Part shown: positions 1,277-61,084 of the stretch, piece by piece
Layout of the letters: each line of letters begins with the position of its first letter
Position numbering within the stretch: position 1 is the stretch's first letter
Source: Saccostrea echinata
Taxonomy: Eukaryota
Assembly: GCF_033153115.1 (NCBI RefSeq)
Contig: NW_026889762.1
Span: 5,724,496 to 5,788,495 of the forward strand
Length of the DNA stretch: 64,000 nt
Reading direction: 5' to 3'
The notes under the pieces: model-generated
Told to the model about the DNA's origin: nothing
Database searches by the model: none
The model's input: only the letters and a program-made list of their open reading frames with translations
Program-made: the position numbers and the translations under genes

Positions 1277-1311
<35 letters not shown>

Positions 1312-2490
1312 CACATTGGCTTGGCAAAAGCACAAATCAGTTCAGTATTGAAAAAATTACTGGGGAGGGGGGGGGGGGCTTGAATTTTAAACTACCTGAT
1401 GATGCTTCCATGTCAATATAACAAATGGCTTTGTTGTACTTGAGAAGATTTTAAAAAAATTTCCCATATATTCCTTTGTAAAAATTTGATCCCCCATTGT
1501 GGCTCCTCCCTATCCCAGGGGTCATCATTTGAACAAACTTGAATCTACACTACCTGAGGATGCTTCCATATAAATATGACTCATCATGGCTTTGCTGTTC
1601 TTGAGAAGAAGATTTTTAAAGATTTTTCCTATATATTTCTATGTAAAACTTTGATAGTCCATTGTGGCCCCGCCCTACCCCCAGGGGTCATGATTTGAAC
1701 AAACTAGAATCTACACTACCTGAGGATGCTTCCATATAAATGACTCATCATGGCTTTGCTGTTCTTGAGAGATGATTTTTAAAGATTTTTCCTATATATT
1801 TTTATGTAAAACTTTGATCCTCCATTGTGGCCCCGCCCTACCCCTGGGGGTAATGATTTGAACAAACTTGAATCTACACTACCTGAGGATGCTTCCATAT
1901 AAATATGACTCATCATGGCTCTGCTGTTCCTGAGAAGATTTTTTAAAGATTTTTCCTATATATTTTTATGTAAAACTTTGATCCTCCATTGTGGCCCCGT
2001 CCTACCCCTGGGGGTAATGATTTGAACAAACTTGAATCTACACTACCTGAGGATGCTTCCATATAAATATGACTCACCATGGCTCTGCTGTTCCCGAGAA
2101 GATTTTTTTAAGGTTTTTCCTATATATATCTATGTAAAACTTTGATCCTCCATTGTGGCCCCGCCCTTCCCCCGGGGGTCATGATTTGAACAAACTTGAA
2201 TTTACACTACCTGAGGATGCTTCCATATAAATATGACTCAGCATGGCTTTGCTGTTCTTGAAAAGAAGATTTTTAAAGGTTTTTCCTATATATTTCTATG
2301 TAAAACTTTGATCCTCCATTGTGGCCCCGCCCTACCCCCAGGGGTCATGATTTGAACAAACTTGAATCTACACTACCTGAGGATGCTTCCACATGAGTTT
2401 CATCTTTCCTGGCCCTCTGGTTCTTGAGAAGAAGATTTTTAAAAGATGCTATTAATTTTTCACTAATTCTTTATTATCTCCCCTTGAAAG

Positions 2491-2540
<50 letters not shown>

Positions 2541-2543
2541 ACT

Positions 2544-2574
<31 letters not shown>

Positions 2575-2648
2575 AGTTCTGGAGAAGAAGATGAAATTGT
2601 GAAAAGTTTACAACGACGACGACGACACCGACGACAACGACAGACAAA

Positions 2649-2704
<56 letters not shown>

Positions 2705-2705
2705 G
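1277..2705 (+). mobile_element. Helentron/HINE-like non-autonomous element carrying a satellite array
   Basis: 5' end 'AACAAGAGGCCCATGGGCC...CACCTGAG' is shared with copies at 7652 and 41553. It has an internal ~163-bp tandem array. The 3' end has the GACGACGACGACACCGACGAC tract, then the hairpin 'gagccttcggctc', then 'aGGTGAGCTAAAAAg'. The same 3' architecture recurs at 43383-43456 and 61021-61084. Confidence 0.65.
1380..2560. repeat. Tandem satellite array, ~163-bp monomer, ~7 copies
   Basis: Monomers restart at ~1538, 1707, 1869, 2033, 2196 and 2360 with 'cttgaatctacactacctgaggatgcttccatataaatatgactcatcatggct...ccattgtggccccgccctacccc...ggggtcatgatttgaacaaa'. Copies are about 90% identical. 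Confidence 0.9.
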
Positions 2706-3372
2706 TGGTTTCTTTAAAAATCTATACTTAACAAAATGTCTAATATTTTCCATATTTTACTGAGCACTGAGTGAGATATTTGACCTGTTGATCATGTTGA
2801 TAAAATATTGGACTGCTTAGTCACACAAAGATAAAAGGTATAACAAAACATTTATTGACTGTGTTCTAGGGCAAAATGCATTTTGACTACCCTCAGAACC
2901 AAACTGTTTGTCTTTGGCCTAACAGCCTCAGGGAAACAGTTTGGTTCTTGGGTCCAACAAAATGCATGTTGCCCTTGAACCCAGTTAATAAATGTATAAT
3001 ATTGCTAATTTGTCTGCAGGAAATGCCAAATGTACATAAGCTAAACAATGACATCTGTAAAAGGGTAAGTCACTTATAGTTTCACAGGGCTTAAAAAAAG
3101 ATTACAAAGAGGTTGTACTTTTACAAAATAGAAGATACCCTACCTTGTGGAAGCAATTTTAATTCAAAATGTTATCAAACTTTTTCTCATAGAATATTTT
3201 GGCCAGTACAATCATATTTTCAGCTAGGTAAAGGTACTGGGTAGCAGCAGATTTTGCAAGACTTGACTTTCATGCTTATCATTTTTCAGTACTTTCAGTA
3301 CCTTGATCATGTTGAGTAAGGATATATTAATGGTATATTGAAAAACAGTAAACATGGTAAAAGAAACCATAC

Positions 3373-3899
3373 CTGGAAAGAAAATCTGATGATGCAGACC
3401 CAATTCTCATTGACATGAATTCCTCTTTAATGTTTCTCCTTGCTTGTATGAAAAAGTTTTCAATTTTTTCTATTTTACATGACATTATGATAGAATCAGA
3501 ATCTTCATCAAAGCTACTCATGCATTTTTTTGTCGATTCGATCAGACATTCCTTTATTTCCAGAAGTTTAGTCCAAAATGCAGCACGATCTTTGATACCA
3601 TAAAATTCCACTGAATACAAGCCTTCCAGAACAGATTTAGTTAACTCTGACAATTCTGTCGCTTTTTCATCGTAAAAGATCCCATAAGATTCTAATATAC
3701 CATTATCCCATTTTGAAACATCACATCTGTAACTTTTGTCTCTTTCATAAGATTGAGATCGAGATCGAGTCAAATTGGTACTGTAACTGTCATCACTATC
3801 ACAAGATTGAGATCGAGATCTTGGACTTAATTTTCTTTTTCGTGATAATACTGAAGAGGGTGACATTAGTATAAGGCTAGGATTTGGTGAACCTTCCAT
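3373..3899 (-). CDS. Putative first coding exon of an unknown gene with an Arg/Ser-rich N-terminus (MEGSPNPSLILMSPSSVLSRKRKLSPRSRSQSCDSDDSYSTNLTRSRSQSYERDKSYR...)
   Basis: ATG in an acaATGg context at 3899 (minus). Open for 175 codons, then a minus-strand donor 'tccag|gtatgg' at +3372/3373. The six-frame ORF 3327..3899 reads through into the intron. Codon composition differs from the flanking AT-rich DNA. Confidence 0.4.
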
Positions 3900-3994
3900 T
3901 GTACAAAATGGTGTTTTCTAGCACTTCTTCCTAAAAATAAATATGAGAGATCACTAACCCTTTATGATAACTGCTGGTACTGCTCTTTTGCAAT

Positions 3995-5010
3995 TAATAG
4001 AGAGGTTTAGCAAACCAACGTGTACGCATACATGTACGTGTTCCCCCCGGAAATCTGTGCATTACGTCATCAGTTTTGCTAATGACGAATTTCTACACGT
4101 ATCCACTTATGTGTAAATTACCGAGTACACGTAAGTCTAAACTTGTAGCCTATATTTCTATAACTGCTGTTTAAAATGTGTGCGTTTTCCTATAACCTGA
4201 AGGTTTAATGCATATACTGATATAAAGAACTAAATGTCTATGATTGAAAAATATAATTTTATCGAATGTTAAATACACAACATCTAGACTTTCAAAACAG
4301 GCTTTGAGGGATCAAAATTATAAGAGCTCTTTCCATTCTTTTTCCTATAAATATATGCATATATTTATTTAAAAGGGTGATATGCGTATTATTTAAATTT
4401 AATGTCTTTTCCATTTTTTTTTTAAATGTTAAGCACTTTTGCATTTAACAGGTCCAGCACAATACCCCGATAAAGGTATATAGCTTGATAAAGCTATATA
4501 CCTTTATCAAGGTATTACAAATACCCTGATCAAGGTATTTTATGTAATGAAAATACAAAAAAAAATCCTAAAAAAATTAAATTTAAAAGTTGAATTATGA
4601 GTTGTAGTCAGTGTGTTCACTCGTGCATGAAAAGTACTCAGGTATCAAAAAGACGGTATAAAAGAACGTCTCCTCACATGACATGCTTTTATACTGATTC
4701 TTTGTGTTTAAGTACTTTACATGCATGAGTGAACTCAGAACTCGACTTTCAGTATTTATTTTTTTTAGGATTTTTTTGGTATTTTCATTACATAAAATAC
4801 CTTGATCAAGGTATTTGTAATACCTTGATAAAGCTATATAGCTTTATCAAGCTATATACCTTTATCAGGGTATTTTGCTGGACCTGTTTAAAACACTTAC
4901 AAATATAGGTACAGGATATACTTGGCTAAACTAGAAAAATAATGTAAACGTGTACGTGTAATTCTAACTTGTAGTATACACGTACATGTACACGTACAAG
5001 TGAGCTTATT
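3995..5010. mobile_element. Outer inverted-repeat pair (~100-150 bp arms at 3995-4150 and 4920-5010) enclosing the MITE at 4443-4885; nested MITE or foldback structure
   Basis: 'ttaatagagaggtttagcaaaccaacgtgtacgcatacatgtacgtg...' at the left pairs with the reverse complement of '...cacgtacatgtacacgtacaagtgagcttattaaatctctctattaacg' at the right. Confidence 0.45.
4443..4885. mobile_element. MITE with ~115-bp terminal inverted repeats (TIRs 4443-4560 and 4770-4885) and a candidate TTTAA/TTAA target duplication
   Basis: Left arm 'caggtccagcacaataccccgataaaggtatatagcttgataaagctatatacctttatcaaggtattacaaataccctgatcaaggtattttatgtaatgaaaataca' is almost the perfect reverse complement of 4770-4885. 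Flanks read ...gcaTTTAAcagg / cctgTTTAAaac. Confidence 0.7.
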
Positions 5011-5231
5011 AAATCTCTCTATTAACGTTTCATGAAGTTTTTGTTGGCAGAAAATTAGTTGTTTTTTAAACAAATGCTACCTCATCATATTCCACAAAGC
5101 TCGATCAATTTTCCTGCTCTGTTCAAAATGCAATTTTACATAAAAATATTTCGGGGCCAAATTATATATTGCCACTATTAATCATTCATTTGATAGAAGT
5201 TGCAGGAAGCAGATATACATTATTGCAATTT

Positions 5232-5545
5232 GTGTGTGTGTGTGTGTGTGTGATCACAGGAGTTCGCAATTTTATCAATAAAGTCAATAAAAATCACTCG
5301 ATTGACCAAGCCATGAGCTATGCGTAGAGAGAAGGAAGAAAAAAAAGCCCCCGACACCGGCGGACCGGTGCCAGAGGCGGTAAGATAGAAGAGAGAGGGG
5401 GAACACAGGAGTTCGCAATTTTATCAATAAAGTCAATAAAAATCACTCGATTGACCAAGCCATGAGCTATGCGTTAGCATAGCTCATGGCTTGGTCAATC
5501 GAGTGATTTTTATTGACTTTATTGATAAAATTGCGAACTCCTGTG
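5232..5545. repeat. (TG)10 microsatellite, a 75-bp direct copy (5251-5325) and a perfect ~144-bp palindrome (5402-5545) built from the same 70-nt unit
   Basis: Unit 'cacaggagttcgcaattttatcaataaagtcaataaaaatcactcgattgaccaagccatgagctatgcg' occurs once directly at 5251. At 5402 it occurs again, immediately followed by its exact reverse complement ('...gctatgcgttagcatagctcatggcttggtcaatcgagtgatttttattgac...cctgtg'). Confidence 0.85.
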
Positions 5546-6077
5546 GTGTGATGCACTTTAACCTAGAGGTTGCGATCGCTCTTTTCTTAACATTTCCAGT
5601 TGCAATAAATTAAACCTTAGTAAAATTAGCTTTCTATGAGCCTACAGAAATTGTTTATACCTTGTCCATTAATGTCATCCACCAGGAAAGTATTGCAGGG
5701 AGAATACGACCCAGTACATTCTTCAGTCCGAAAAGACTCGGCAACATGTCAAATATCACAATTTATAGAGTTATCGTTCTTTGCCTAGGTAACGGGATGT
5801 TTCGCGCCATTGCATGATTCGCCCAGAGATGTTTCAGTCCAGATATATAAATGTACATTGAATTCGTTTAGCAAAAAAAAAGTAAATTATTTTACATTTG
5901 TAAATATAAAATATAAGTAATATATGTACATTTACATTTAAATAAAAAATATATAAGTAATATATGTACACCTGTGGAGAGTTTTTTCCCCAATTTTCAA
6001 TTTTTTACCATTCTCAAGTATTTTTTTGTGTTTTGAAAAAAAATGAACAAATTAAAACATAAATCCGGAATGTTCTT

Positions 6078-6130
6078 TGTGTGTGTGGGTGTGGATGGGT
6101 GTGTGTGTGTGTGTGGGGGGGGGGGGGGGC
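6078..6130. repeat. GT/G-rich microsatellite ending in a poly-G run of ~17 nt
   Basis: gtgtgtgtgggtgtggatgggtgtgtgtgtgtgtgtggggggggggggggg. Confidence 0.9.
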
Positions 6131-7651
6131 TCTTCCAAAATTGTGAATTTCATGGCCCCTGGTTCAGGGGTTCTGTGTTTGGGTGGGGCTCCATTGATAA
6201 TATTTATGTAATAGCAAAATGCATTTATTTAATGCTAAAAAAAATCTTCCCGTATGCCCCAGAGTAAACTAATTAAGTGCAATAATATAAATGTAAATAT
6301 ATAAATATAATTATAAATAATGTGGGGGGTTTTTTTAGTTTTCTCTGATCCTGGGTATATCTAGGAGGCAAACAGAATACAAAATTAATTGTCATGTGAA
6401 GTAAAGGAGAGTTACTCCCCTTTGCTAAATTGTTGTAATCAAGAAGTTCTCGTGTATAATTTAATTAAGAGGGTTTTTTTTGATTGAATGACAATACAAA
6501 AAGAATGTTATATATAGAAACAAAAATAAATGTTTGGTTTAACTGAGCAATGCATTCTCGAAGTCAGATTCTTGCCTGAAAAGTAATATAAAAGATTGAC
6601 ATAAAGGTTATCTATGCATATATAGAAAAAGGGCCCATTGCACACAGGATGTGCATGAACATGCATGGTGTTAAGTTTGACAATTGACGAGTTATTTAAT
6701 TAATGAATTCAATGGCTACTCAAGTTATACTGTTTTTTTTATAACCTGGGTTGGAAGTTAATGTGGTTTATAAAAAGCGTAAACTGCTCCAACCTAGGTT
6801 ATACGAGTAGAACTTGTGTAGCTTTTGAATTCATTCCTTATAATTTAATTTTCCAACAATGAGTATAGAAAATAAGACGTTGTTTCTTTCAAAAATTCCC
6901 TTTAACAAATTTTATTTTAAAAGTAACGTCAGGCGGATTGATCATTGTAACGTAGGAAACGCAGATTATACAACATGATATAAATTTATTTTTCTGTCCA
7001 ATCAATTGGCGTGTTACAATCAGAATTGAATTATTGTCAGGTAAAATCATGGTTGGCAAGAGACTGCATAAAATCTTATTATACTTTATTAACGGGAACA
7101 AGTGATCACAGAGAGTTCGGGTGAATATGGGACAATTTAGTTGATGACAAGTGACAAATAACCGCGTTGTATAGGCAAGCCTCTCTTTGTGTACTCAATT
7201 GTAGCAGTAGGCAAGCGACAAAAACATATGTATATATTGAATACCTTACACACTAGGCAAGTGTCCATTGTATTTGTATATTTTGCATTCATTAATACCC
7301 CTGTAAGACTGTGTAAAACCAACTGCGATCACAGGAGATCACTCGGATCTCGCACGTTACACTAAGCAAGGGTATTTTTACCGAATCTTGGAATTCTCAG
7401 CAACATTGCTTCATCTATAGGTTAATCTTGTTTTTTTTTTTTTTTTTTTACTTTTATGGATCCTTTACAGTGTTGTATTAAACTCTGGTGACCGTCAAGG
7501 CCCTTGGGCATCTTGTTTATATAATATTAACTTAATAAAATAAATTGAACAATCACTCTATCACGTACACTATATGCCTCCTTGACCACCCAAGACGAGA
7601 TGGCATCTGTCCTGTCTAAGGTCTTGCGAGGATTACTTCGCCTAGTTAAAA

Positions 7652-9080
7652 GAACAAGAGGCCCAAGGGCCTTAACGGTCACCTGAGAATAATACAACAA
7701 TTTAGAAGATCCATAGAACATAAAATAAACTGAAAGATGAAGATTTGTTGCCCAAAAGAGAGAGAAGTAGGAAGATCAGGATCAACAAAATAATAAGTCT
7801 AATATTCAGTAACAACTCATAAATGAAGTTCTAATCTGTTCCCCATTTATCACTATCACCATGCACACTATTAATTCTGTTCTATTTTTAACCTCATATT
7901 ATAACCTCTCACATTGGCCTCTCTTGGTCTTTGAAGAACATTTAATAAGGTAAGTTATTTTTGTCTCATTTTATAATCTATTATTTACAAGTCTACCTGA
8001 TCATTAGAACTAAGAAAGTACTTCTTGTATTGTACAGTAAAAATTCTTGCATAATTCTCTTATTCTATTAACCTTTCAAATACATTATTTTCAGTCATTA
8101 ATAATCACAGGTGAATGGCAAACTAGAATAACTTCTCGCAGTAGAATACAAATTAATAAAGCCCTGCCCGGGTCAGAACGCTTGACCAAATGATCCAGAT
8201 GTTCAAAAATATGGTAAAAATACCCTTGCTTGTTAAAGCTGTTACTCAGTTTGCCTCCGATATGCCCAGAGGCAGAGAAGAATTTCACAGGTACAATGCA
8301 TTTTCGCTTCAGATTCAGTTATTTACCCTCATCATCATAACAATGCACTTCAAAGAAGTAACACATTTCCACTATATTATCAATTACCCCCCCCCCCCCC
8401 CCAATTCCCGAGAAACACCAGAACCCCTGACCGTGGACCACACAAGTTTTGAAAATTCTGTTAGGAGCACCCTTGTTCTTCATGCATAACTATGCATTTT
8501 GTTTATCTGCGCAACATTAAATAATCTCCAAGGGCAGAAAAAACGTTTTAATGCATTTTCACTATATAATCAATAGAGCCCCGCCCTAACACCAGCACCT
8601 CTGATCCAGGGGTCATGTGGTTCACAATTTTGGAAGAGACCTCCTTGTTCATCATTACTATGTACTCTTTATGTACTCTATGTATACTTTTTTATTCAGA
8701 AGCAGAGAAGATAACATTTTCAAAGAATCAAATAATGCATTTCACTATATAATCAATATAGCCCCGCCCTTACTCCAGAATCCCTGGCCCAGCTAGGGGC
8801 TATGAAATTCACAATTTTGGAAGTGACATACTTGCTCATCATAACTATGCATTTAGTTTGTTTGCTGAATACCCAGGAGCAGAGAAGATTTTTTTAAAGG
8901 AATAATGCACTCTCACTATATAGTCAACACAGCCCCACCCTAGCACCAGAACCACTGACCCTGCATGGGGCCATGATATTCACAATTAAGGTAGAGGGTT
9001 CAATGCTTATTACAATTATGCCAACAGTTTGACTGCTTGATGTCCAGGAGTAAAGAAGATTTTTAAAAATTGCATTTAAA
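7652..9080 (+). mobile_element. Helentron/HINE-like element, copy A, 3'-truncated; paralogous to 41553-43456
   Basis: 'aacaagaggcccaagggccttaacggtcacctgagaataatacaacaatttaga...' at 7652 aligns with 41553. The ~400-bp 5' region is collinear with copy B, followed by a ~180-bp satellite array. Similarity to copy B stops near 9080, before the conserved 3' hairpin terminus. Confidence 0.65.
8280..9080. repeat. Tandem satellite array, ~170-190-bp monomer, ~4.5 copies, containing a C16 run
   Basis: Monomers begin 'cactatata(a/t)tcaat...agccccgccct(a/t)acaccagaacc...ggggccatga(a/t)attcacaatt' at ~8370, 8560, 8743 and 8912. Confidence 0.8.
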
Positions 9081-9961
9081 AATGGACTTTAGAGCTTGAT
9101 TTCTGTTTGTTAACTCCATATTTGATGTATTTCTATGCAAGAGAAATACAGAGTCTTTTGTTTGTTTAAGATGCTTTTCGTTATGGCAACAGTCGCCATG
9201 TTAATGACGAATTTATAATGTTTTTACTGAAGGGAAAACTACTTTAAATTTGTAATGACATAACTGATCAGTTTATTGCAGCAATGGGAAATACAAACTG
9301 AACAACAACAACGCAAAGCAGTTAAGGCAGGGCAGAAGTTTGTGACATAAGGTACAGGCGTTTGATGCTGGTCATCTAAGATCTTTGAGTGAGTTAATAA
9401 TGCTTTACTATGTGTATAAATATTTTTTTTTTAAATTATGTGATACAGCATTAAAAGAGAATGAAGGCGAAAAGATAATAGAATGGACGGGGTAAAATTC
9501 TGAAAACAAAAACAATAAATAACTCAAGGAAGAATACTAATTTATTTCAAAGGGATTGCTTATGTTACAATGGAAGACTGAATGACGTCATAATTACAAG
9601 TAAATGACGCAGCAAGAAGTATCATCCGGTCCTGTAAAAGAAATGTTCATTGTTACTAAGAAATAATGTTTCATTTTAAAACTTGCTATCGGTATGCAAA
9701 TGGGTTGCATGGTCGTGCTCGAATGACTTTTTGGTATATTTATTCACGTTCGAACCGCATTTATATCCCAGTAAATGTTTAAAAATGATACGATATTTTA
9801 ATGGGATAACCAAACGATGAAAAATTAATTTCAAATTATAGCAAAATTTTCTTCGAAATTTCATTTAACATTGAAGTATACTTTTTATTTAAAAAAAATA
9901 CTAACTTTTTATTAAAAAAAAATACTAACAAGGTACGGTTTCAATACAAATCTTGCCCTGT

Positions 9962-9987
9962 TTTTTTTTTCTTAAAAGTGAAAGTGA

Positions 9988-10025
<38 letters not shown>
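9962..10025. repeat. Poly(A) tract of about 48 nt
   Basis: An uninterrupted A run at 9979-10026, preceded by T10. Confidence 0.9.
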
Positions 10026-10027
<2 letters not shown>

Positions 10028-26730: not shown

Positions 26731-29199
26731 GATACAAATTTGTATTGTTTTAATGGATTTTTGAGCTTGATTACTGTTCGTTATCGTCATATTTCATAAG
26801 GCATCAAGAGTATCTAAGCAACACAAAATCACATACTAGTATATTGATTTGGAAATAGTCCAAAGATTTTCAAGCGCGTATCCAGAGGGGGAAATCCCAC
26901 TAGAATTTTCAGTTTATTGATTTCTTATAGTAAAGTAACCAAAATATGACACTGTGTGGCAACTCGGACTAATGGTAAAATGGTAAGGAGAGTCATATGA
27001 CGTATATGAAGGAAATTTAAGCGAGTTACCACCCCCCACCCCCCACCCTTCCCACTTTTAATGAAATAGTTTATAGTCCTAGTAAAAAATTCCTATACCA
27101 GCGCATGATTTTAGTCTATACAAATTATGGACAATGGGACTCTTGTTGGGTTAAATTTTCCACATAATACATGAGAAGGGGAAAAAATCTTTGAAAATTT
27201 TCCAGAGCAGGAAGGGCAATAAAGTCATATTGATATTCAGCATCGCAATGTTGTGTGACTTTGACTTTGAGTTCGGAACCATGAAAAAAGTCATAATCCC
27301 TTGGGGCAAGTGTAACAGGTTTTGATATGAAATAAAATATGAGCCTATTAGAGAGTTCTGGACAAGACTTTTATGTGCATGGATGTCAATCAAAACCTTG
27401 GAATATTAAAAATATGACAAATGTAAAGGAGGGATTCTTCTCATACTTCTTATTTATGAAAATTAATGAAATTTTCATAGATTCAAGAAGACAATATCAC
27501 GAAGTGATGGTATCAATTAATTAGATTAAATTTGATCTTTTTTTATTTTAGAAGCAAGGTCAAGGTCATTATCTTTATCCTTGACATTAAGAATTAAAAA
27601 AAAAATACTGTTGCCAGTCATGTGATGCCTACTTCTATTTCAAAACATTAAAATATTTTCTTTTGCATAAAAAGATATTAACATATAGGGTCTATCAGAT
27701 CATACTACCAGACTGACATACATGATGATATAATTAAAGTAGATATATTGGCTAATCCGAAATTCCTCTATTTTTCTTTAATTTTTCGGGAATGTTAGCT
27801 ATTATTATATGCTTCGTATATTGAAATTTTACTTATTTTCAAATATGGTAGAGTAGTGATATAAAGATACGAAATGATAAAAAAACAAAAAGTTTTGAGA
27901 GAGAAAAATAATTTTTACAGATTTTTGCTCCCATCTGTTCTAGATTAAAAGCTTTTAAAAGCTAACAAGATTGTAGTTTGTTTGGAGATTCAAATTGATT
28001 TGATATACATGTATTTTAAAACTTTAGTACATTGTTATTAATTTTAGATACTAGTACACTAGAAAATTCTTTAAATCTTTGATTAATGGTTAAAAAAAAC
28101 TATTTTCATTGTACTGTGGTAATTTTGATAAACAGAAAAGGAGATATTTTCATGCGCCGCCGTTCTGCCAAAAATATAGTCCCTATCAAATTTCAAACTC
28201 AGTTTACTATTTTTATTTAAAGTTGTAAAGTTATGAGTAGAAAAGAAAATAATTATGATCTTTTAAATTCCTTATATCTAAATATATAAGACATATAAGC
28301 CATTATACTTTGAATGTTTCATTTAGTCAGAAGCCAGACACTAATCCTTCCATAAACATTGAAATAATATACAATGGTGATTGTCAAGGGAGAAAATTCC
28401 TTATACATTGTACATATAATTCAATTATATATTTCTCAGCAATTAAAGAATAATAAATATCCTGTCACAAAAGCTTTACAATAATTATTATTATAAAATT
28501 TATGAACATATTGATTAGTGTTGGGGAAATACATTGTATATTACATATGCAAAATTGCAGATTTGACATTCAACAGATACATGCATATACAGGATATAAG
28601 AGTAAATATTAATATTAGTAATATTTATTTTTACTTACCAGAAGTTGAAGAAATACCAGTCTCAACAAAAGACTTTTGTTCAAAATTTCAAATATACAAT
28701 ACTGACCAATACTATACAATAGCTGACCAATTCCAACTCTGGACAAAGAATGTCCAGAAATCAAGAAACTTCTGGTTAACTTTTTTATTCCATGCAATTC
28801 CTAATACCACTTCAAGGATCAAGGATCGTGGTGAAGGGCTTGTGTGTTTCAATGACCCAGAGAGCTAAATGTATGCTAGCGGGAGCAAAAGCTTTTGGTA
28901 GGGATTCCCGGTGTGTTCCCATTTCGCCTTAACTGTGAAATATAGGTAAGAAAATGGTTCCCTTGTAAGACAGGAAATGGGTAGAGATAAGACAAAATGT
29001 GATTCACTGGTCCTCCAAGTTTGGGTTGGGCATAGGGCTGCATGACAACCCTATCCCGTAAATGATGTTACGGAAAGAAAAGCAACAGATAAAATTAATG
29101 TTTCAGCGTGCGACGGACCTTCTGAGTCAAGTGAAACTTTTATGAATGCTGGTGGCCAAAGACATGAGGATATTGGATAGTAGAGGACCTAAACACCAC

Positions 29200-30399: not shown

Positions 30400-30850
30400 T
30401 TTTTTTTGTTTGTATTCTATAATTTTCCATTTGTATTCTATAATTTTTCATTTGTATTGTATAATTTTTTTCATTTGTATTGTAAAACTTTTATTTGCAT
30501 TCTATAATTTTCCATTTCTATTCTATAATTTTTTCATTTGTATTGTTTAATTTTTCATTTGTTTTGTATAATTTTTATTTGTATTCTATAAATTTCCATT
30601 TGTATTGTACAATTTTACAATACAAATGGAAAAGTATACAATACAAATGAGAAATTATACAATATAAATGGAAAATTATACAATACAAATAGAATATTAT
30701 ACAATACAAATTTAAAATTATAGAATAGAAATAAAAATATACAAATGGAGAATTATTGAATATAAATAAATATTTACAATGCAAATGAAAAAAAGATAGG
30801 ATACAAATGGAAAATTTTACAATACAAATGAATTCAAAATACAAATGGAA
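30400..30850. repeat. Palindromic minisatellite: about 11 tandem copies of a ~20-bp unit (ttccatttgtattctataat), then the inverted array (attatagaatacaaatggaa), centred near 30618
   Basis: 30400-30615 repeats 'tttt(c)catttgtattgtataatttt'. 30620-30850 repeats 'tacaatacaaatggaaaattata'. The whole block can fold back on itself. The six-frame ORFs 30110..30550 and 30575..30997 over this block are artefacts. Confidence 0.85.
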
Positions 30851-32276
30851 AAAAAAATCGAATATTGCGACGTTTGACATGCCATAGTTCTTGACAGGCA
30901 AGCTTACACTTGTACTTCGTTCTACTTGGTATGGGGGCAAACAAACTCGACACCGTCTCTTATATATTGGAAACGAAAGAACAACACTAATCTTCATACC
31001 GAAAACGTTTGGATATACGAGTTGTCAACTAACCTCAAAAGTAAAGTTTATCTAATCGGTAAGTTGAATAAATATATCGTGATGTCTACATAATTGGATT
31101 AACGATATTAAAAGAATTGTTTGAATGTGGATCATTCCTCTAGATGACAATCCTACTAAGACGAACGCCATGCAAATGTTCTCATTTAACCCGAATTTAC
31201 TTTAATCAGGTCATAATCTCTCAACTAGCATTTTTGAATAGCTGAAGCTAATTTGCTTGTATTTCGAGCTTTAAAGCTAAATAAAGAGATTGTACCAGTC
31301 TTGTTTACCCAGAGGATATATTGATATCTTTTGACAAATTTTGATTTCAATAATATTTTATTTATTTTTCCGGTACCCAAATTTTCATCCTCACAATGTA
31401 AGGGTCCTGAGTCCGCTCATAGCTCACAGTACAGGTGGTCTTCAGCCATAAGTGAACTCTTGACGATCTTCTCACTCTATCCCCCCACTTTTATTCTTTT
31501 TTTTGGGGGGGGGGGGGTGGAATGGAGATTATCGGGACCCCTGACATTGTCATGATTGTGAGGATACTAAATTTTATGGTCAATAAAATTGAGCTAAAGT
31601 GTTGTAAAGAAGGGATACCTTTATTTATCGTAATGCCTACAGCGGATAACGTTATACATTTGATCAGAGATGTATACAATGGGAGTAAAAAGTTAAAACA
31701 ATGCCTGTCATGTTATGTACATGATTGTATGTCTCTGATTTGATGTTTATCAATAATCAGTATTCAGAGACCTGATTTAAAAAAAAAACAAAACAAAAAA
31801 AACAGTTTTTAATTGATGGCCTTGCTGTATCTTACCTCAGCTAAACTATTAAATGTAGAAAATTTAAAATGATACCAGGACCTACATGTATAATAGGTTA
31901 CACACCACTTAGTGTAGGCATACTTTTTCTGTGTGGGATTTAGACTGTGTACAAAATCACAATTTTTCTGCAGAAATTTGTCACAGAGTGCTTTAAGTAT
32001 GTTGAAGACATACATTGGCAATGAGAGAAATCCACATCATTTTCTACATGCGGATTAAACAGAAATTGATTCAGTGAAATTATGATCTTGTGGAAAAATG
32101 TACATATTTTACATTTTGTGAATTTTGCTACAGTGTCATATTATAAACAAAATTAGGAAACTTTATGTAAACATAACTTACTATAAAGCGAACTGCTAGA
32201 AAATTTTCTTACATAAAATCAGATATTTTTTTTATCAGGCTATATTAAGCCATTGAGCCTCTGTTCAAGCTGTATC

Positions 32277-52195: not shown

Positions 52196-55100
52196 GCCCT
52201 CGTTACACTTGAGTGAATTTTTGGTTTGGCTATCGAGATGTGCACATCTCCGATAGTAAAGTATTTGGGAACACATGAATTGATGAAAACATTTTAAAAC
52301 CATAACAGATAAAAACAGTCATAAAGATATTTATGAATAATTATCGTTTTGAATAATATAATTGCAAGTTTGGAAGAAAAACCGTAGATGCGCGTGTTTT
52401 TTAAAAGCATACCAATATATGCAACTAAACTAGAAAATAATTCACAGTAAAACTCGTACAAACAATTTGCAATAATCTGTTGTAAAATGGAACAAAACAA
52501 CAAGCGTATTGTGGTATTTGCCATGCATGCCCATATGCATTCAAATACAATTGATGCATATCGAGAGAACACGTCGAACGCGTGTAAACTTATTCATACC
52601 TGGAAATAGACCACTGTACCCATTCGAATATGTGCGCATGCCGAGTGATTTACATCTTGTATTCCATTTATTGAAATATGCATCACAAAGAAGTAATAAA
52701 CTCCATAAAACTCAACAGTAAACACGTTGTCACTTCATCGTACAGCCTAGCACTCAAATACACTTAGTCCGTGCTGATCAGATTTTGGTCAGGGAAAATA
52801 TCAAAAGTGAAAAAGGGAATTAGTATTTGCGCGACCGGGTAAAAAAAAAAGAAATCACTTTTAAAAAGTTTGATTACTGATTATCTAAAAACTAAACTTA
52901 ACTGAGTAATTTGTTGTAAGAAAATGATTTAGAACACGACATGAAACCATTTAACCAGAACACAAATTAAAAATATACGCGCACGTAGAGCGGGGGGGGG
53001 GGGGGGGTACCCCCTTCTCTGAAAGTGTCTTTCAGTTCAGGCACGTAGCATCTAAGAAATAATTGACGATTCACCTGAAAAAAACCTTTGACAAGAAAAA
53101 AATAATAATAATAATAATAATAATATGAATAAATTAAAAAAAATCTCCAAAATCCCATTTTTTGTTGGTGATGGGGGATTGGGTGGTTGGGCAATTTTTT
53201 TGACGATTAGACTATAGTGCAACAAAAAGTGGAGTGGGTCAGCCTTTTAATGTGCATTTCATACAAAACAGTAAAACATTATACTCAGAAAAAAGTGGGA
53301 GGGGGCAACCCCCCCCCCCCCCACCCACGCGTTCTACAGGCCTGTCTTTTACGGTTGACTTCGTAAGGATTTTTATCATTTTAAGACTGGCTGCCCCCCC
53401 CCCACTCTCATCCAATATTATTGTACATTTTACTTAAATATTTTTCTGCCGAAAATGATAGTATGAATGGAATCTGTCCCTCCCCTGACTACTGATTTTT
53501 TTTTAATGCCTGTTTTCCTTCTTCACTTCCCCCAATTTTTAAGTGCCTAAACTTTTTCTTTTGCTTGTCGATCATTTTACTGTCCCCCGCTCCCCCCCCC
53601 CCCCCGCATACATACATTTTGAGAAACGGTGCTGCTTGCCTGTTTTATATGCATGTAACGGAAGCCTTTCCAGATTGGAGAATTTCCGCAGGCAGTCTAA
53701 AATATGGTACTATTCAATTTCTTGTATTTTGAGAAAATCTTAAAAGATGGTTTAAGGATTACTTGAAACCCTAACCGCAAGATTATGGATGGATTTATTT
53801 TTTGCCTTTTCAATACAAGTACTCCCTCTCTCTGTCTCTGTCTCTCATGTGTAAGCATCCATACATGTAGAGCAATAATGCATATAAAATCCAATGTAAT
53901 AAAAATCATGGGAAATGCTATAGTCTTGACAAGGGCAGATCAAGGAATTTTTTTGGGGCAGGATGGATCCAACTTGCTGGAAAAAAAATGAAAAAAACTA
54001 CACCCAAATGAAAGGGGAACTAAACAATTGGGAAAACTATATTTCACGGGAATTGAAACATGTGGACCCTTCTCACGTACTTTCCAGAGGAAACGAAGTC
54101 AGTTTTTTGTTTCTTTATACCTATTTGAAGCTCTAAAGAGCACGGAGGGTTCCTACCAGAAATTTTTGGACCAAAAAAAATGATAACCTATATCAAAATT
54201 TAAAAGAAAAAAACATACATTTTTTTCCTTTTTGGGGGGAGGGGGGAGGGGGGACACTCTCAGGGGCACGTTGTTTTCCTTTCCCTTAAAACTTTGACTA
54301 TAAATTATAAAATAATAAAAAAAAAAATAATACACATGCACGCAACTATATTTTAATAATTCAGTCACATTACAAAATTTCTTTAAATATCTAGAACGTG
54401 TAAATATGTGTTATTGTTAAAAAAAACATTTGATGTAATGTAATAATCAGTACTTTTGCATCGCCTCGTGATATCTTTTTCAATGCCTCCCCACTTTACA
54501 TTTGGGTACAAGGTAGAACTATTTCAATTATCAATATTACTTTCATATATACTATAGTGTAATACTTACTCAACTTCAATGTATATAAAAACATGTACTG
54601 TAGATTATGTTATATACACATAATTATGTCTGTGCTTTTAGGTAATTGTATCAATCGTGCTTGTAATTTGTGACGCCTAAAAGGGCCCTGATTTGAAAAT
54701 AATCTGTCTACAGAAACAAATTGTTCATTGTGTGTTAATTTAATATATATTAATTTTACATCTTAAGTAGTTGAAGCCAGTTCATTGTACGTATTTGATC
54801 AAGAAAAATCCGACCGTTTTCCGACGTTTGTTTAAAATATATTGAAAAATGTTTATACATATTCCATCCCCCTTCATTTTTTAAAAGATGTAAGATCCGT
54901 AACAAGAATGTATGTTTATGTCATAAATTTGATGTAATGAAGCCACATTCATGTTCATATTTACGACATGTACCGACAACAATTAGTTCGATTTTCTGAA
55001 ACGTTTTATTTGCGTGACTATATTGTCTAATCAGGCAAAACCAGTGTCATTTCCACCTTCGACATTTTCCCTGACCAAAAATGCTGATCGGCAGGGACCA

Positions 55101-55705
55101 CGTGAGTTCAAGTGCTAGTGACAATGTGTTTACCGTTGAGTTACAAATGGAGTTATTTCTTATGTGATGCATATTTCAATAAAAGGAAAATAGGAAGTAA
55201 TTCTTTCGACATGTGCACATCCTTGTAGCGATAGCAGTATTTCAGGTAGATGAGTTTAAAGCGTAGCGTTCGACGCGTTTTCTCGGCATGCATGCATGTG
55301 TAGCTTGAATGCGTAAGTTGCATAGTATGTGCTTATACCGTTTAGCATGCATAAAGCTCAAAGTACAGTGTCATTTGGAAAAAAAATGCATGTGGTAGCC
55401 TTTTCTTCTTTATTGTTCAAATATATATGTATATCAAACATGCATTTGTCGTTTTGATTTCCATGCATTGCATCTAAATTATTCAAAATTTATATACTCC
55501 TTTCCAGTTTTCAATAAAATTCCTAGTTTTGGTAGGATTGTTAGATTTATGGCATGTTCCAAAACTGCTTTCTCGGAGATGTATACAGGCCTACATGTTT
55601 TCGGTCAGTTCATGTTCGTTCAGTTTGTTCCAAAACTTTGCTATCGGAGATGTGTACATGTCGACAACCAGACTAGAAAATCACTCAAGTGTAACAAAGG
55701 CATCA
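52196..55705. mobile_element. Long-TIR element (~3.5 kb) with ~600-bp inverted arms (52196-52810 and 55050-55705) enclosing a 2.2-kb core rich in homopolymer G/C runs
   Basis: Left-arm segments 'ttacacttgagtgaattt', 'ctatcgagatgtgcacatctccgatag', 'gagagaacacgtcgaacgcgtg', 'catttattgaaatatgcatcacaaagaagtaataaactccataaaactcaacag' and 'ctgatcagattttggtcagggaaaatatc' all reappear reverse-complemented in the right arm (55680-55700, ~55590-55640/55205-55235, ~55265-55290, 55130-55200, 55062-55092). No intact long ORF lies inside. Confidence 0.65.
52985..54255. repeat. Cluster of five homopolymer runs: G16 at 52991, C14 at 53317, C10 at 53393, C14 at 53590, and G7AG6AG6 at 54226
   Basis: Read directly from the sequence. 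The runs are embedded in the core of the long-TIR element. Confidence 0.9.
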
Positions 55706-57729
55706 GGGTTTATATAGCCGGTAAAATAAGTGAGCGAATCTGAAAGAAATATGGCGGGAAAAGGAGTACGGGAATGAAATAAGTCGTACAAGGATGAAAT
55801 ATCACATATTTAAGAGTTCATGTCAGCTTTAATAACGAAAATATATTTAAATTATTCTTTTGTATCGGTATTTTTCTGTTTAATTGATCTATTGTTTAAT
55901 GAAGTGAAATTAAGGCTGCAGCAGTGCCCTTTATTAATTTTTCACAGTAAATTAATTATTCCAATTAATAATTTTTGTTTTTACATTTTTTATTCGATAC
56001 TGTATACTTATTCGATACTTTAGAGCATTTTCTGAGAGCAATCTTTTTTTTAAAAGCGAGACAGACTACTGCAAATAAATTGATATTACGGTACATAATA
56101 ATAATAGAAATGCTTTAGAATATCTAATAAGTCTAGAGTATCGAATAAGTTTGGAAACTCAATACATTTTTTGTTATAACAAATTATTAATTTCTTCTAA
56201 CAAATACTCTGGAATCATTGAATTTCTTGGTGGCTCAATATTTGTGGATTTTGTGGGTATCCTGTATCCACGAATTAACATCGTCAACGAATTAATAACT
56301 TGGGTTTCAAGATTCATTTTCCTTTTTTTAGATATGAATGTATGCACAAAATTAAGTTCCCTCAAACCTGTAAAATTCAGGCAATCCACGAAAATTGGCC
56401 CCCACACAGCTTTGATGATTCAACAACTAGTAATTAATGAAAAACAAACTATTGTGAAAAACCTCATTGTCATTTATTTCAGGTTCGCTGGGATATATCA
56501 AGTCGACATATCACTGCTCATTGATAAAAGTTCGGGGTTTGTTATGTTTATATGTAATTTATAGTAATGAAATGTGAACAGATTCTTGTGCTAGACATAA
56601 AATAACATTCTAAACACTCAAAATGAATTTGAATAACTATATTTATACTGAATACCAAAACTGCATAAAAATCCTTACAAAGATGCATGGCGAGTTCAAG
56701 TTAATGTTTGATCAAGCCTTTCATTCCTCACTTAAATATTAACAGCAGTGAAGGAAAAACTGGAGTACTGTACATGTACTACAACATTCTAGTAGATCTG
56801 GTATTAATCAGATTAACTTGGAAACTCTAAGGAACTTTTAGAAAATTTTAAATCACAAAAAATTACCTAAATCTATAAAGCATCAAAATATAATACTTTA
56901 TAAAACCATTCCCCATGATAAGTTAGAGTCCAGGCTTTCTGACATCAAAGACGGCTGCTTTTTCAATAAGAATGGAACTCGTAAATTTACATACCTTGCC
57001 AGTGGTCATTTGCAAAATTGTTTTGTTGAACAAATTCTCTGATTGCTCACAAATGTATTCTGAAGTTGATATTAAAAAGATGCTTCAATTTCTATATGAC
57101 CATGTTGTTTAGAGATCAAGTCCTCCGACAATCTGCTTAAATTCCCATAGGTATAAATTGCGTTTAGTTTCATGCATTAGATCTATTTTTGTATTCATAT
57201 AAAGCAGAATTGTCAAATAACTTCTGAATAAAAAGGACGTCGTTTGCCATGACTTTGAACATTTTCGACATTTAGTTATATCGACTAGTTTTATCACACA
57301 ACAATATTTATTTCGATTCCTACATTGATTCAACTGAACTCAAAACAAAAGACACTACGAAGTCTGACACATATGTTACATGTTTAAACATTTTAATAGT
57401 GAAAGACTAACATCAATACTCATGATAAACCTTATGACGTCAACATTTCTATTGTCAATTGCAACTTCCCTCATTTATGTAACAATATACCGTTATCACC
57501 TGCATCTAGAGTATGTCGATCTCCCAGTTGATTTGATTCACAAGAACAGGTTACATTTACGAACAATTTCTAAAAAGAAGCAAGTTTATGATAAATAAGC
57601 TGATGATAAAAGGATACCAACACTTTCGTTTAAAGTCAACATTTCGCTAATGCAATAGTCGATACAATGACTTTCTTATCCAATACATTATATATTTTAC
57701 AAACGTTTTGAAAGATCATTATTTTGAGG

Positions 57730-57880
57730 CTGAATCGTTTACAGGTTTTCCCGTTTCTACGATCACGACAAGGAGATAGCACGGTAAATGTGACCCGTCA
57801 ATATTCAACAGGGAATGGTTACTTCTCCCAAGCACCTAGACCCAACATCTGAAGATATTAGAGATACGTGTTTATTCTGC
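57730..57880 (-). mobile_element. SINE-like repeat copy (same family as 26590-26730)
   Basis: See the alignment under 26590-26730. Orientation is inferred from the tRNA-like T-arm motif in the related 25890-26110 copy. Confidence 0.35.
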
Positions 57881-59879
57881 TCCCAATTTTTATTGTTCCA
57901 GTTGACTTTTAAGCTTAATTCACTGTTTGCTATATATGTTCAATTTTCTTGATGTCCTAAAAATTAATACAATGTCTGTTTAGGAGACTTACCGTCTGAG
58001 TTCGTCTAAGTAAATCATATACGCAAGTTTTAAACAATTTATTTTGCAATGGACAAACATGTTTTTGGTTATCATCAATTAATTCACAACACTGAAATAT
58101 TTATTAGGCCTAAAAAAAAAAAATGTGTTTCGGGTAACCCGACCTAACCTATAAAAATGCGCCGATCCTAACTTTTTTTTCGATGTCCGTATTTATCCAA
58201 TTAAAATTCCTATTATTTCTATGTAAAATCCGTTTTTATCAGAATATTTTTTCTCATTCCTAAGAAACGTCTTTAAAACGCTTAGGTTTACAGTGAACAT
58301 TAACGATATTTAAATCAACATGCAAGCGTTTTTATGACGGTTCCGACACATGGAATGGGAAATCTTTTGGATAATATAATTTGACACTGATATTTCTGTA
58401 ATTTAAAAGTTTTGTGATATAGCTCGTTCCGATTACGTGTCCGACCCTCATGGACAGTCATGGTTTCGTAATCGTACTACGCATGTCTAAGCCAACGTGT
58501 ATACAAACACAAAGGTGAAAGTGAACTAAACTTGTTTACGCACAGGTGTGTGGTAAACAATGATAGCTGTCAAAAGAGAGCAAAAGGCTTAATAGATATT
58601 TGTGCCAATTAGATTTTTTCCGACATACAAATAGGACGAATAATGAATAAGTACATTAGTAAAAGCCATTTTCTATCTTTCTAAAAGATTTTTTTCTTAA
58701 AAATCACAGATTTTGATAACTGTGTAAAATATTTTAGATCGCTTTTTTCTTCGAAGAAAAACTTATTGTTTTGGAAAGAACCCACAAACGCAGGGACAAG
58801 CTGCAGTGTAAACAATAACTAGTCACATAATGTTGAAATCAATAAAATTATTTTTTTTTTAAATCTGTACAAAAATTTATAAGAGATTCTGGTAGATTCG
58901 GTTAATTATTACAACCTAACACTAAAACTCTGGTTAGTTAGATATCATGTAAAGAATGTATGTTTAAAACAAACATGTTTGTATATTAAAGTTTTTTTTT
59001 CTATAGACATTGACAGTTGTAGCCATTTACATGTATGGTGAGAACATCGTAAGTTGCTAGAACTTGTGTTCAAACCATTTGTATATTATTTATGCAATAA
59101 AATATGTTCAAACAAACAAACAAAAAACTAGATAATTAACATTCACACAATTACAGCCTTCTTTGAAGATCAAAAAACCTTCACTGGTAAAAATACAATT
59201 GCTTCAAATTTACAATTATGAATTGTATAATTAAATAAAGATGATATTGTTCTGAATTCAAACTGCATCCGAAATGTAAATATATAACTAAAACCATCTT
59301 AATCAGTTAATGATTAAGAACATGTGATTTGTGTTAAAATGAAAATTTTCCCTTGTAGAAGAGACATTTAATAAAAGAATTTTAAATTATCCATTAACTG
59401 TTATCTTTTTGATTCAGAACGAAACCACTCAGGTCATAAACACAAGGGTCGAACACATATTTGAAACTTAACCACTCATATTTGCTGAAATGAAGAGAAA
59501 ATTAAAAGGATATGAAACTATAAAATTTAGTTGTCTAATGTTTTTCAAACATGTTGGAGTGAAATACAATAGAGAATAATATTCTCATGATTTTCTATCT
59601 ATATTTCAGTGGTCATACATTAAAAAAAAATCCAAAAAAAATTTCCCTACCTATCTACCCTAATTTTTTCATCAGTGTTACCCGAAACACACAATTTTTT
59701 AGGGCTTATACTGTCAGGAAACAGCAAGATATATTTAGTTAAGGAAGCCCTAAATCCAATGAAAAACATAGGTAATCAGACATTACAGAGCTCACCTCAA
59801 CGAATGTTGTCTTTTTATGTAAGGCAAAGTCCCACACTAAACTAATAATCTAGGAGTGTGCATTCCTAGATGCAACATT

Positions 59880-60900
59880 TATGCAATTTTGGTCTGATAG
59901 GGCTTGCAGTTACTTGGGAATAGACTTATCTGAAAACTTAAAACTAGTCACTCATCCAGAAAATGTTAGTCAAATCCAGCATCCGAAGCAAGTTTTGAGA
60001 TTGTTCGTCCCTTGATGCATCATCCATGCAAGTTTGGTTCAGATAAGCCTTATACATGTAGTAACTTGGGTATGAGATCTGCTCCAAAAACTTTAACCTG
60101 GTTACTCATCCGGAAAATGTAGGTCAGATCCAGCATCCGAAGCAAGTCCAGTAGTGTGAATCCTTATAGATGTATCATCCATGCAAGTTTGGTCAATATA
60201 GGGTTTATAGTTACTTGGAAATGAGATCTGCTCCAAAAACTTTAACCTGGTCACTCATCCGGAAAATATAGGTCAGATCCACCATCCGAAGCAAGTCCAG
60301 TAGTGTGCATCCTTAGATGTATCATCCATGCAAGTTTAGTCAATATAGGGCTTATAGTTACTTGGAAATGACATTTGCTCCAAAAACTTTAACCTGGTTA
60401 CTCATCCAGAAAATATAGGTCAGATCAAGCATCCGAAGCAAGTCCAGTAGTGTGAGTCCTTAGATGTATCATCCATGCAAGTTTGATCAATATAGGGCTT
60501 ATAGTTACTTGGAAATGACATCTGCTCTAAAAGCTTTAACCTGGTCACTCATTCGGAAAATATAGGTCAGATCCACCATCCGAAGCAGGTCCAGTAGTGT
60601 GCATCTTTAGATGTATCATCCATGCAAGTTTAGTCAATATAGGGCTTATAGTTACTTGGAAATGAGATCATCTGCTCCAAAAACTTTAACCTGGTTACTC
60701 ATCCGGAAAATATAGGTCAGATCCAGCATCCGAAGCAAGTCCATTAGTGTGCATCCTTAAATGTATCATCCATGCAAGTTTAGTCAATATAGGGCTTATA
60801 GTTACTTGGATATGAGACCTGCTCCAAAAACTTTAACCTGCTCCAAAAACTTTAACCTGCTCCAAAAACATTAACCTGGTCATTCTTTAGCAAATATTGC
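59880..60900. repeat. Tandem satellite array, ~150-bp monomer, ~7 copies
   Basis: 'tcactcatccggaaaatataggtcagatccagcatccgaagcaagtccagtagtgtgcatccttagatgtatcatccatgcaagtttagtcaatatagggcttatagttacttggaaatgagatctgctccaaaaactttaacctgg' restarts at ~59957, 60109, 60262, 60411, 60560 and 60710. It ends with a triplicated 'ctccaaaaactttaacctg'. Confidence 0.9.
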
Positions 60901-61084
60901 AGCATCTGTAACCTTGACTGGTACAATGAAACACACTAGAAGCATCCTCCATGCATCTCTGACTAATATAGGCCATAGAAGTACTTGAAAAGAAAACTGC
61001 TCCAAAAACCTTAACCTGGGACGCCGACACCGACGCTGAGGGTATTACATAAGCTCCCCCAACTTCGTTGAGGTGAGCTAAAAA
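59880..61084 (+). mobile_element. Helentron/HINE-like element: satellite array plus conserved 3' terminus; 5' boundary uncertain, somewhere in ~59700-59880
   Basis: The array is followed by 'gggacgccgacaccgacgctgag', then the hairpin 'caacttcgttg', then 'aGGTGAGCTAAAAAtg'. This is the same 3' architecture as at 2612-2705 and 43383-43456. Confidence 0.6.

Follow-up and report, generated by a model that had tools for sequence, protein, structure and literature searches.

Satellite arrays carried by non-autonomous Helentrons (HINEs) have been published for Crassostrea gigas and five further oysters, with Cg170/HindIII as the commonest satellite in all six, and most of the examined C. gigas satellites are mostly associated with such elements. 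Saccostrea echinata belongs to the oyster family Ostreidae, and the stretch of its DNA analysed here, termed the window, comprises 64,000 nt of NW_026889762.1 (G+C 32.7%, no N). In all probability, non-autonomous Helentrons of the DINE-1, Pearl and Cg_HINE kind that carry satellite arrays are present in the window as three full-length copies and two or more truncated ones. No paper describing HINE-carried satellites in Saccostrea was found, and a literature search for the terminus strings returned nothing, or unrelated primer matches.

The left flank of the C. gigas Cg_HINE elements is composed of a 5' subterminal inverted repeat (subTIR), a complementary inverted repeat (IR) and a microsatellite, often GTCY or GTCK, and the right flank of a 3' subTIR and a palindrome, with T-rich or TT targets and no target-site duplication (PMC7492417). 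The HINE definition of Thomas et al. 2014 (PMC4067079) comprises subTIRs of 12-15 bp that lie a few nt (5') and ~38-60 nt (3') from the respective ends, either a palindromic subTIR or a 5' subTIR that pairs with a short IR (DINE-1 type), a microsatellite that follows the 5' structures and in many families is of GTCY/GTCK type, a 5-10-bp palindrome ~8-35 nt from the 3' end, T-strings at the boundaries, and TT insertion without target-site duplication. For comparison with C. gigas, the conserved boxes of Helitron-N2_CGi/N2C_CGi were taken from Table S3 of the satellitome paper (PMC8268682), in which Box 1 marks where the element starts, Box 2 where it ends and Box 3 the interval between microsatellite and repeats.

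Anatomy, orientation and family of the elements

The full elements are labelled E1, E2 and E3, and a truncated copy of the E2 type is labelled copy A. All coordinates are whole-window positions, the true orientation of the elements is the minus strand, and tandem arrays were called by Tandem Repeats Finder. Element ends are labelled TTTTTAGCTCACCTGAGC... / ...GGCCCATGGGCCTCTTGTT for the E1 type, with the variants AGGTCACCT (E2) and AGCTCACCTCAACGAA.

1277-2704, minus strand: E1, complete HINE of 1428 bp, a Helitron-N2_CGi / Cg_HINE group-1 member by its box matches
2669-2704, minus strand: E1 5' end, a hairpin, with T-run 2700-2704, subTIR AGCTCACCTGAGC 2687-2699 and IR partner 2669-2682
2612-2646, minus strand: E1 (GTCK)n microsatellite, read directly; Cg_HINE left flanks have the same class of motif at the same position (PMC7492417)
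2454-2609, minus strand: E1 Box 3, a single ~157-bp unit in the microsatellite-to-array interval (C. gigas Box 3, 140/156)
1379-2443, minus strand: E1 central array of Cg170/HindIII type, 6.5 x 164 bp (Tandem Repeats Finder)
1277-1312, minus strand: E1 3' end, with 3' subTIR 1301-1312, palindrome GGCCCATGGGCC 1284-1295 and terminal CTCTTGTT
41551-43456, minus strand: E2, complete HINE of 1906 bp with variant subTIR AGGTCACCT.. / ..AGGTGACC, from boxes, subTIR and empty site
43425-43456, minus strand: E2 5' end, with T-run 43452-43456 and 8-bp hairpin; eroded microsatellite 43384-43409
42205-43290, minus strand: E2 central repeats, ~6 diverged units of 165-167 bp (Tandem Repeats Finder: 42718-43214, 165/167 bp x 2.6)
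41551-41586, minus strand: E2 3' end, with 3' subTIR 41574-41586, palindrome GGCCCTTGGGCC 41558-41569 and CTCTTGTT
59762-61084, minus strand: E3, complete HINE of 1323 bp with a third terminus type and an unrelated 147-bp array, from subTIR and T-runs at both ends
61020-61084, minus strand: E3 5' end, with T-run 61080-61084, hairpin 61052-61079 and microsatellite remnant 61020-61036
60880-61019, minus strand: E3 degenerate monomer adjoining the microsatellite (z 23.7 against the E3 monomer)
60817-60878, minus strand: E3 19-bp mini-repeat, within the array region 59855-61019
59855-60840, minus strand: E3 array, 6.6 x 147 bp (Tandem Repeats Finder)
59762-59804, minus strand: E3 3' end, with 3' subTIR 59789-59804, palindrome GTAATcagacATTAC 59772-59786 and T-run 59762-59766
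7653-9080, minus strand: copy A, 5'-truncated E2-type element that keeps the 3' end and repeats and has neither microsatellite nor hairpin, from alignment with E2
7440-7517, plus strand: 3'-terminal fragment of another E2-type element (84.6% identity to the E2 3' end; Box 2 26/34)

The string GGTGASCTAAAAA occurs exactly, on the plus strand, at 2692-2704, 43444-43456 and 61072-61084, compared with none in the 100 shuffles from which the chance expectation was derived, and each time it closes a unit of 1.3-1.9 kb that holds a tandem array. Upstream of all three sites on this strand are a hairpin and a CGAC/GACG-rich tract, the latter at 2612-2646 in E1, 43384-43409 in E2 and 61020-61036 in E3. 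Three ends of this single architecture had been reported at these places in the preliminary description of this DNA, and were recovered there with the correction that E1 ends at 2704, not 2705. The perfect hairpins of 10-13 bp that it described are imperfect when DNA folds are evaluated against shuffles, with stems of 7+6 bp flanking one mismatch in E1 (-12.3 kcal/mol, z -5.3), 8 bp with a 12-nt loop in E2 (-5.9 kcal/mol, z -4.7) and 5+2+4 bp with bulges in E3 (-8.1 kcal/mol, z -3.2). Its monomer lengths of 163, 150 and ~175 bp are likewise replaced by 164 (E1), 165/167 (E2) and 147 bp (E3).

The head AACAAGAGGCCCAWGGGCC, found on the plus strand at 1277, 7653 and 41551 and on the minus strand at 7499-7517 (with one mismatch) against an expectation of 0, corresponds to the 3' end in reverse complement, comprising the 3' subTIR, the palindrome GGCCCATGGGCC and then CTCTTGTT. 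Two different 5' sequences had earlier been distinguished among the elements; the head of E3 does differ, but the heads are 3' ends. A further match to the head with three mismatches (27129-27147) falls, on alignment, inside a decayed monomer and was for this reason not accepted as a terminus.

The shared hairpin terminus, initially described as a conserved 3' terminus, is the 5' end of the elements (T-run, 5' subTIR, IR and microsatellite), since C. gigas Box 1 matches there on the minus strand and Box 2 matches at the opposite end. Its hairpin is no 3' termination hairpin of the Helitron type. On the minus strand of E1, Box 1 is matched at 42/42 positions (nt 5-46), Box 2 at 36/36 (nt 1392-1427 of 1428, at the AACAAGAGGCCCATGGGCC end) and Box 3 at 140/156 (nt 96-251). 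The values for E2 are 30/35 (Box 1), 29/34 (Box 2) and 85/100 (Box 3), while E3 matches Box 1 alone and loosely (28/37); matches to Box 4 and Box 5 were short and at noise level. The E1 subTIR is that of Box 1, where the same-family rule of Thomas et al. asks for at least 11 identical subTIR bases, and the accompanying 60-bp rule was tested in part, as the table gives 39 nt of Box 2 and the last 36 comparable nt are identical. These matches place E1 in one family with C. gigas Helitron-N2_CGi/Cg_HINE_1. E3, and E2 together with copy A, form sister families outside the Helitron-N2_CGi family, because their subTIRs are altered (30/35 and 28/37 to Box 1) and their monomers are others.

Read on the minus strand, each full element shows the same order: a run of ~5 T, a 12-17-nt subTIR with an IR fold-back and an eroded (GTCK)n microsatellite, followed by 147-167-bp monomers starting at the microsatellite, a 3' copy of the subTIR, a short palindrome and a T-ended terminus. 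In E1 this order reads TTTTT, the hairpin AGCTCACCTGAGCC-gaa-GGCTCAAGTGAGCT, (GTCK)n, the repeats, GCTCAGGTGAGCG, atgt, GGCCCATGGGCC and TCTTGTT. The subTIR pairs consist of 5' TAGCTCACCTGAGC and 3' GCTCAGGTGAGCGA in E1 (13/14 complementary), 5' GGTCACCTTAGT and 3' ACTCAGGTGACC in E2 (11/12) and 5' TAGCTCACCTCAACGAA and 3' TTCGTTGAGGTGAGCTC in E3 (16/17). Across E1-E3 the 5' subTIR begins at nt 5-7, and the 3' partner begins ~36-43 nt and ends 22-26 nt before the 3' terminus. Changes in the subTIR are paired at both ends, E1 having AGCTCACC/GGTGAGC and E2, copy A and the 7440-7517 fragment having AGGTCACC/GGTGACC, as expected if one protein reads both ends. The 3' palindromes lie 7 nt (GGCCCATGGGCC and GGCCCTTGGGCC) or 10 nt (GTAATcagacATTAC) from the end, and the microsatellites are GTCK-like on the minus strand and eroded in E2 and E3. 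The elements start with TTTTT and end with TT or TTTTT, so that the minus strand begins TTTTTAG and ends CTTGTT or GTTTTT and the plus strand begins AACAAG or AAAAAC. The target-site duplication has a length of 0 at E1, E2 and E3, as had been anticipated. E1-E3 thereby display the subTIRs, 5' IR hairpin, microsatellite, 3' palindrome, boundary T-strings and absence of target-site duplication listed in the HINE definition. No open reading frame (ORF) of at least 110 aa, no tRNA and no Rfam match lies within the elements, and Rfam and tRNA scans of the whole window gave 0 matches.

Canonical Helitrons carry 5'-TC and 3'-CTRR termini, have a hairpin ~10-12 nt before the 3' end and insert between A and T. 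The elements could on this pattern be canonical non-autonomous Helitrons on the plus strand, with the hairpin beside ...CTAAAAA as the 3' termination hairpin and A/T insertion. The plus strand does have a hairpin just before its end, CTAA fits CTRR, and Repbase places the C. gigas relatives under DNA/Helitron. This interpretation is nevertheless highly improbable, as Box 1, the start in the Repbase orientation, corresponds to the hairpin end and Box 2, the end, to the AACAAGAGG... end, there is no 5'-TC, and the subterminal inverted repeats and T-runs are Helentron traits. The flanking bases, for which the preliminary description had suggested a check for the A and T of a Helitron-type insertion, are not A...T.

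The small size, the lack of coding capacity and the inverted repeats of 11-16 nt near both ends would also suit cut-and-paste MITEs (miniature inverted-repeat transposable elements), which are non-autonomous DNA transposons with terminal inverted repeats, the tandem repeats being incidental, and Pearl and DTC84 were originally described in this way. These repeats are however subterminal and asymmetric, at 4-6 nt and 22-26 nt from the ends, the IR hairpin occurs at one end only with a palindrome at the other, the three elements show no target-site duplication, and the architecture has since been re-assigned to Helentrons in the literature, which makes a MITE origin very unlikely.

Satellite cargo, recurrence and mobility

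The relationship to Cg170/HindIII holds for the E1 array and not for the E2 or E3 arrays. Monomers of E1 are 77-81% identical over ~400 bp to the C. gigas CL1 (Cg170/HindIII) array C24952, a family clustered by its authors at 70% identity or more, and together with the E1 boxes this bears out the comparison with Crassostrea Cg170/HINE sequences that had been suggested. Among themselves the E1 units are 94-97.5% identical in the inner array and 83-88% at its edges; in the inner monomers, which are the amplified ones, approximately one third of the unit is a derived variant, and the unit nearest Box 3 is C. gigas-like. The E1 Box 3 aligns with the ~157-bp tandem unit of related copies in metagenome contigs (z = 61), where this unit is itself tandem from the microsatellite onward, and a distant relationship links the ~157-bp unit with the 164-bp monomer (z 6.6). 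The E2 monomers resemble the E1 monomer (z 2.4) and the 157-bp unit (z 3.9) only weakly, and their k-mers are absent from the C. gigas satellitome file. The E3 monomers are unrelated to the E1 and 157-bp units (z ~1) and ~70% identical to CgiSat37, the only entry of that file to share motifs with E3. In each element the array is an amplification of the segment following the microsatellite, because the units adjoining the microsatellite (Box 3 in E1, the decayed monomer in E3) are related to the repeats.

The orthologous region of S. cucullata was reached through the orthologues of two toxin-like genes. Homology to the S. cucullata region ends at window position 41530 and restarts at 43451, with ~25 bp between, and this interval brackets E2 (41551-43456). 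E2 is thus absent from the orthologous site, a discrete presence/absence difference between the two Saccostrea species. E3 is also missing from the S. cucullata interval, the flanks matching at 59731-59752 (weakly) and 61118-61164; the site holds ~196 bp of unrelated repeats and is not clean. At other sites S. cucullata has copies of its own, one at L001 434-1226 (TTTTTTAGCTCACCTG... to ...CAGGTGAGTGATGTGGCCATGGGCCTTTTGTT) and a second at ~L001 20706-21100.

Two loci of the ENA assembly ERZ25069866 (L004 12756-14363, minus strand, and L005 13146-15196, plus strand) hold elements with identical TTAGCTCACCTGAGCCGAAGGCTCA, the exact E1 5' subTIR/IR core, (GTCC/GTCG)n and a different palindrome, AGGACCAWTGGTCCT; their tandem units are much longer, at ~0.33 and ~0.46 kb by eye. 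In a metagenome scan the exact 25-mer of the E1 5' end was found in 51 contigs, all with different upstream flanks, and a viral-contig scan for the same 25-mer gave 0 matches. Similarity among the metagenome copies starts at the T-run, which has a modal length of 5 (31/51). Six of the 51 contigs also contain the E1-type 3' end ..GGCCCATGGGCCTCTTGTT, delimiting elements of 132-1353 bp. In the shortest of these, a ~132-bp minimal element in L055 (OBLZ010052235.1), the 5' end is joined to the 3' end with no array between, and the array is therefore dispensable cargo. A TRIM ORF on one metagenome contig has its best named relative in Saccostrea (50% identity), indicating a bivalve host. The termini thus recur in S. 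cucullata, ERZ25069866 and the 51 metagenome contigs, and neither of the observations that the earlier description had named as refuting it, non-recurring termini or monomers unlinked to termini, was made.

The array edges are more diverged than the centres, as under unequal exchange, and several array relics have no recognisable termini, both of which would be compatible with immobile satellite arrays whose flanks owe their dispersal to segmental duplication, to recombination or to extrachromosomal circles that reintegrated. That 51 copies with unrelated flanks are similar exactly as far as the T-run, that the 132-bp copy consists of two ends and no array, and that E2 is present in one Saccostrea species and absent from another leave this explanation barely credible. 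The weakest proposal, SINE-like (short interspersed nuclear element) retroposons on the plus strand in which a short poly-A tail would be represented by the terminal AAAAA, draws on the fact that all three plus-strand ends finish in exactly five A and can be set aside as practically negligible, given that the A-run is fixed at 5 nt (the related T-run has a mode of 5 in 51 copies), that neither a target-site duplication nor a tRNA, 5S or 7SL-like (pol III-type) head is found, and that on the other strand a T-run or TT closes the opposite end as well.

Four points weigh against the interpretation of these elements as HINEs. The DNA at the E2 empty site is AT-rich and diverged, so that the junction is fixed only to within a few nt, with which a TT target would be compatible. 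Among the listed ORFs of at least 110 aa in the window, seven of which were taken through Pfam, no Rep/helicase of an autonomous Helentron was found. The 3' palindromes are too short to exceed shuffles individually, and the 5-bp stem at the E3 3' end is not significant alone. The E3 3' boundary at 59762 is placed from structure together with a weak 22-bp flank match (E 0.039), and no second E3-type copy was found.

Beside the observed anatomy, family membership, recurrence with unique flanks, species-specific insertion and absence of target-site duplication, a mode of transposition can be proposed for the HINEs. The elements encode nothing, and as no Rep/helicase partner is present in the window they would be mobilised in trans, by a Helentron Rep/helicase(/endonuclease) made elsewhere in the genome. 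The 5' subTIR/IR hairpin and the 3' subTIR/palindrome would serve this protein as recognition sites, and one strand would be excised or copied by rolling-circle-type transposition, as family membership suggests, and inserted into T-rich DNA without target-site duplication. The satellite array would travel as passive cargo, its copy number presumably shifting locally by unequal exchange or slippage, and the outcome would be short satellite arrays scattered across oyster genomes.

The E1 termini are strongly conserved, with the 42-nt start and the 36-nt end identical to the C. gigas consensus. The 25-nt hairpin core is identical in ERZ25069866, whose CfTX-like protein is 30% identical to that of the window, and is also present in the metagenome bivalve, while orthologous non-coding DNA of the two Saccostrea species is ~70-85% identical. 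These observations form the basis for considering a recent horizontal transfer of the Helentron lineage of E1 among bivalves, as opposed to vertical persistence with termini held by the transposase, in which case E2 and E3 would imply current or recent activity in S. echinata. Such a transfer is unlikely, and the perfect conservation of the termini across genera is likely to derive from transposase constraint.

The occurrence of these elements is ordinary for oysters and poses no new question. It extends HINE-carried satellite arrays from Crassostrea and Ostrea to Saccostrea, fixes the orientation and boundaries of these repeats for annotation and indicates that the C. gigas Box 1/2/3 probes can be used unchanged in Saccostrea. 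The insertions of E2, and probably E3, distinguish S. echinata from S. cucullata beside the toxin-like gene pair.

Truncated copies, relics and neighbouring genes

Copy A was correctly described at the outset as truncated before the hairpin end, containing neither hairpin nor microsatellite, and is ~80% identical to E2 (80% over 7653-8318 and 77% over 8548-9075; Box 2 29/34). Copy A faces the 7440-7517 fragment tail to tail across 135 bp, both are without 5' ends, and this repeated 5' truncation may bear on how copies arise or decay. E2 contains a pure run of 36 T at 41956-41991 that has no counterpart at the corresponding place in copy A; elsewhere the window has a run of 35 A at 9991-10025 and an A-rich run at 15071-15147. 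Three relics of arrays were identified by alignment.

1-296, minus strand: relic of E3-type monomers with 67-71% identity, interrupted at the window edge
6124-6203, plus strand: single E2-type monomer fragment beside a poly-C/(CA)n tract
25107-25299, plus strand: relic of Cg170-type monomers, 66-70% identical

Two intronless paralogous ORFs, at 39378-40727 (minus strand, 449 aa) and 62704-63912 (minus strand, 402 aa), have a S. cucullata relative named 'toxin CfTX-B-like' at NCBI (jellyfish toxin-like). The 449-aa ORF is 100% identical to S. echinata LOC133186387. Both ORFs are kept in order in S. cucullata, with 87% and ~67-72% identity, and neither has a Pfam domain or a PDB relative. E2 lies ~0.8 kb upstream of the first toxin-like gene and E3 ~1.6 kb downstream of the second. 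Between the two genes is an intact 877-aa ORF (48165-50798, plus strand) that is lysine/glutamate-rich at both ends and has 0 matches in Pfam and PDB; it could be an orphan gene or an unclassified mobile-element protein. Opposite window positions 44474-46390, S. cucullata (L001, reverse complement, ~13283-24472) contains ~9 kb of extra DNA, including its own HINE at L001 434-1226. The interval between the toxin-like genes is turning over quickly.

The Pfam search of the large ORFs identified C1q domains only. Three successive ORFs of 125-148 aa occupy 22697-24593 (plus strand), two of them with C1q-domain matches (E 4e-13 and 1.5e-4), and probably represent C1q-domain genes, either as their exons or as tandem copies; this gene family is known to be expanded in oysters. 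An interspersed repeat of ~220 bp at 25888-26110 is 77% identical to a non-orthologous S. cucullata copy (L002, reverse complement, 20993-21204). It is possibly a SINE, from a tRNA-like GGTTCGAATCC motif seen by eye; ARAGORN and Rfam found nothing in it. At 30402-30852, ~10 copies of the 21-bp minisatellite TTTTTCATTTGTATTCTATAA abut ~12 reverse-complement copies, forming an imperfect palindrome of ~450 bp.

Comparison with known systems

The closest described elements are Helitron-N2_CGi/N2C_CGi of Cg_HINE group 1 (PMC7492417, PMC8268682), which E1 resembles in its boxes, its GTCK-type microsatellite and its Cg170/HindIII-type repeats, with the central repeats the same way round relative to the flanks. 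The host genus differs, being Crassostrea for the former and Saccostrea for the latter. The correspondence to non-autonomous Helentrons with satellite arrays such as Cg_HINE/Cg170 of C. gigas (PMC7492417) proposed in the preliminary description is thereby substantiated. Pearl (CvA, CvE and CvG of Crassostrea virginica), MgE (Mytilus) and DTC84 (Donax) similarly combine inverted-repeat flanks, a microsatellite and up to ~6 central repeats of ~160 bp, some of them Cg170-related, and are widespread in bivalves, a likeness drawn from published descriptions.

Beyond the molluscs listed above, the Drosophila element DINE-1 and mite and mosquito HINEs (PMC4067079) have similar subTIRs, 5' IR, microsatellite, optional tandem repeats, 3' stem-loop and boundary T-strings, together with a TT or T-rich target and no target-site duplication; sequence similarity to these was neither expected nor seen. 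The DINE-1 core differs; in the oyster elements a monomer of the repeat family makes up the segment that follows the microsatellite. With canonical Helitrons such as Helraiser, E1-E3 share a presumed rolling-circle-type Rep/helicase transposition, the absence of target-site duplication and a hairpin near one end, but differ in having neither 5'-TC/3'-CTRR termini nor an A-T target, and in their subterminal inverted repeats.

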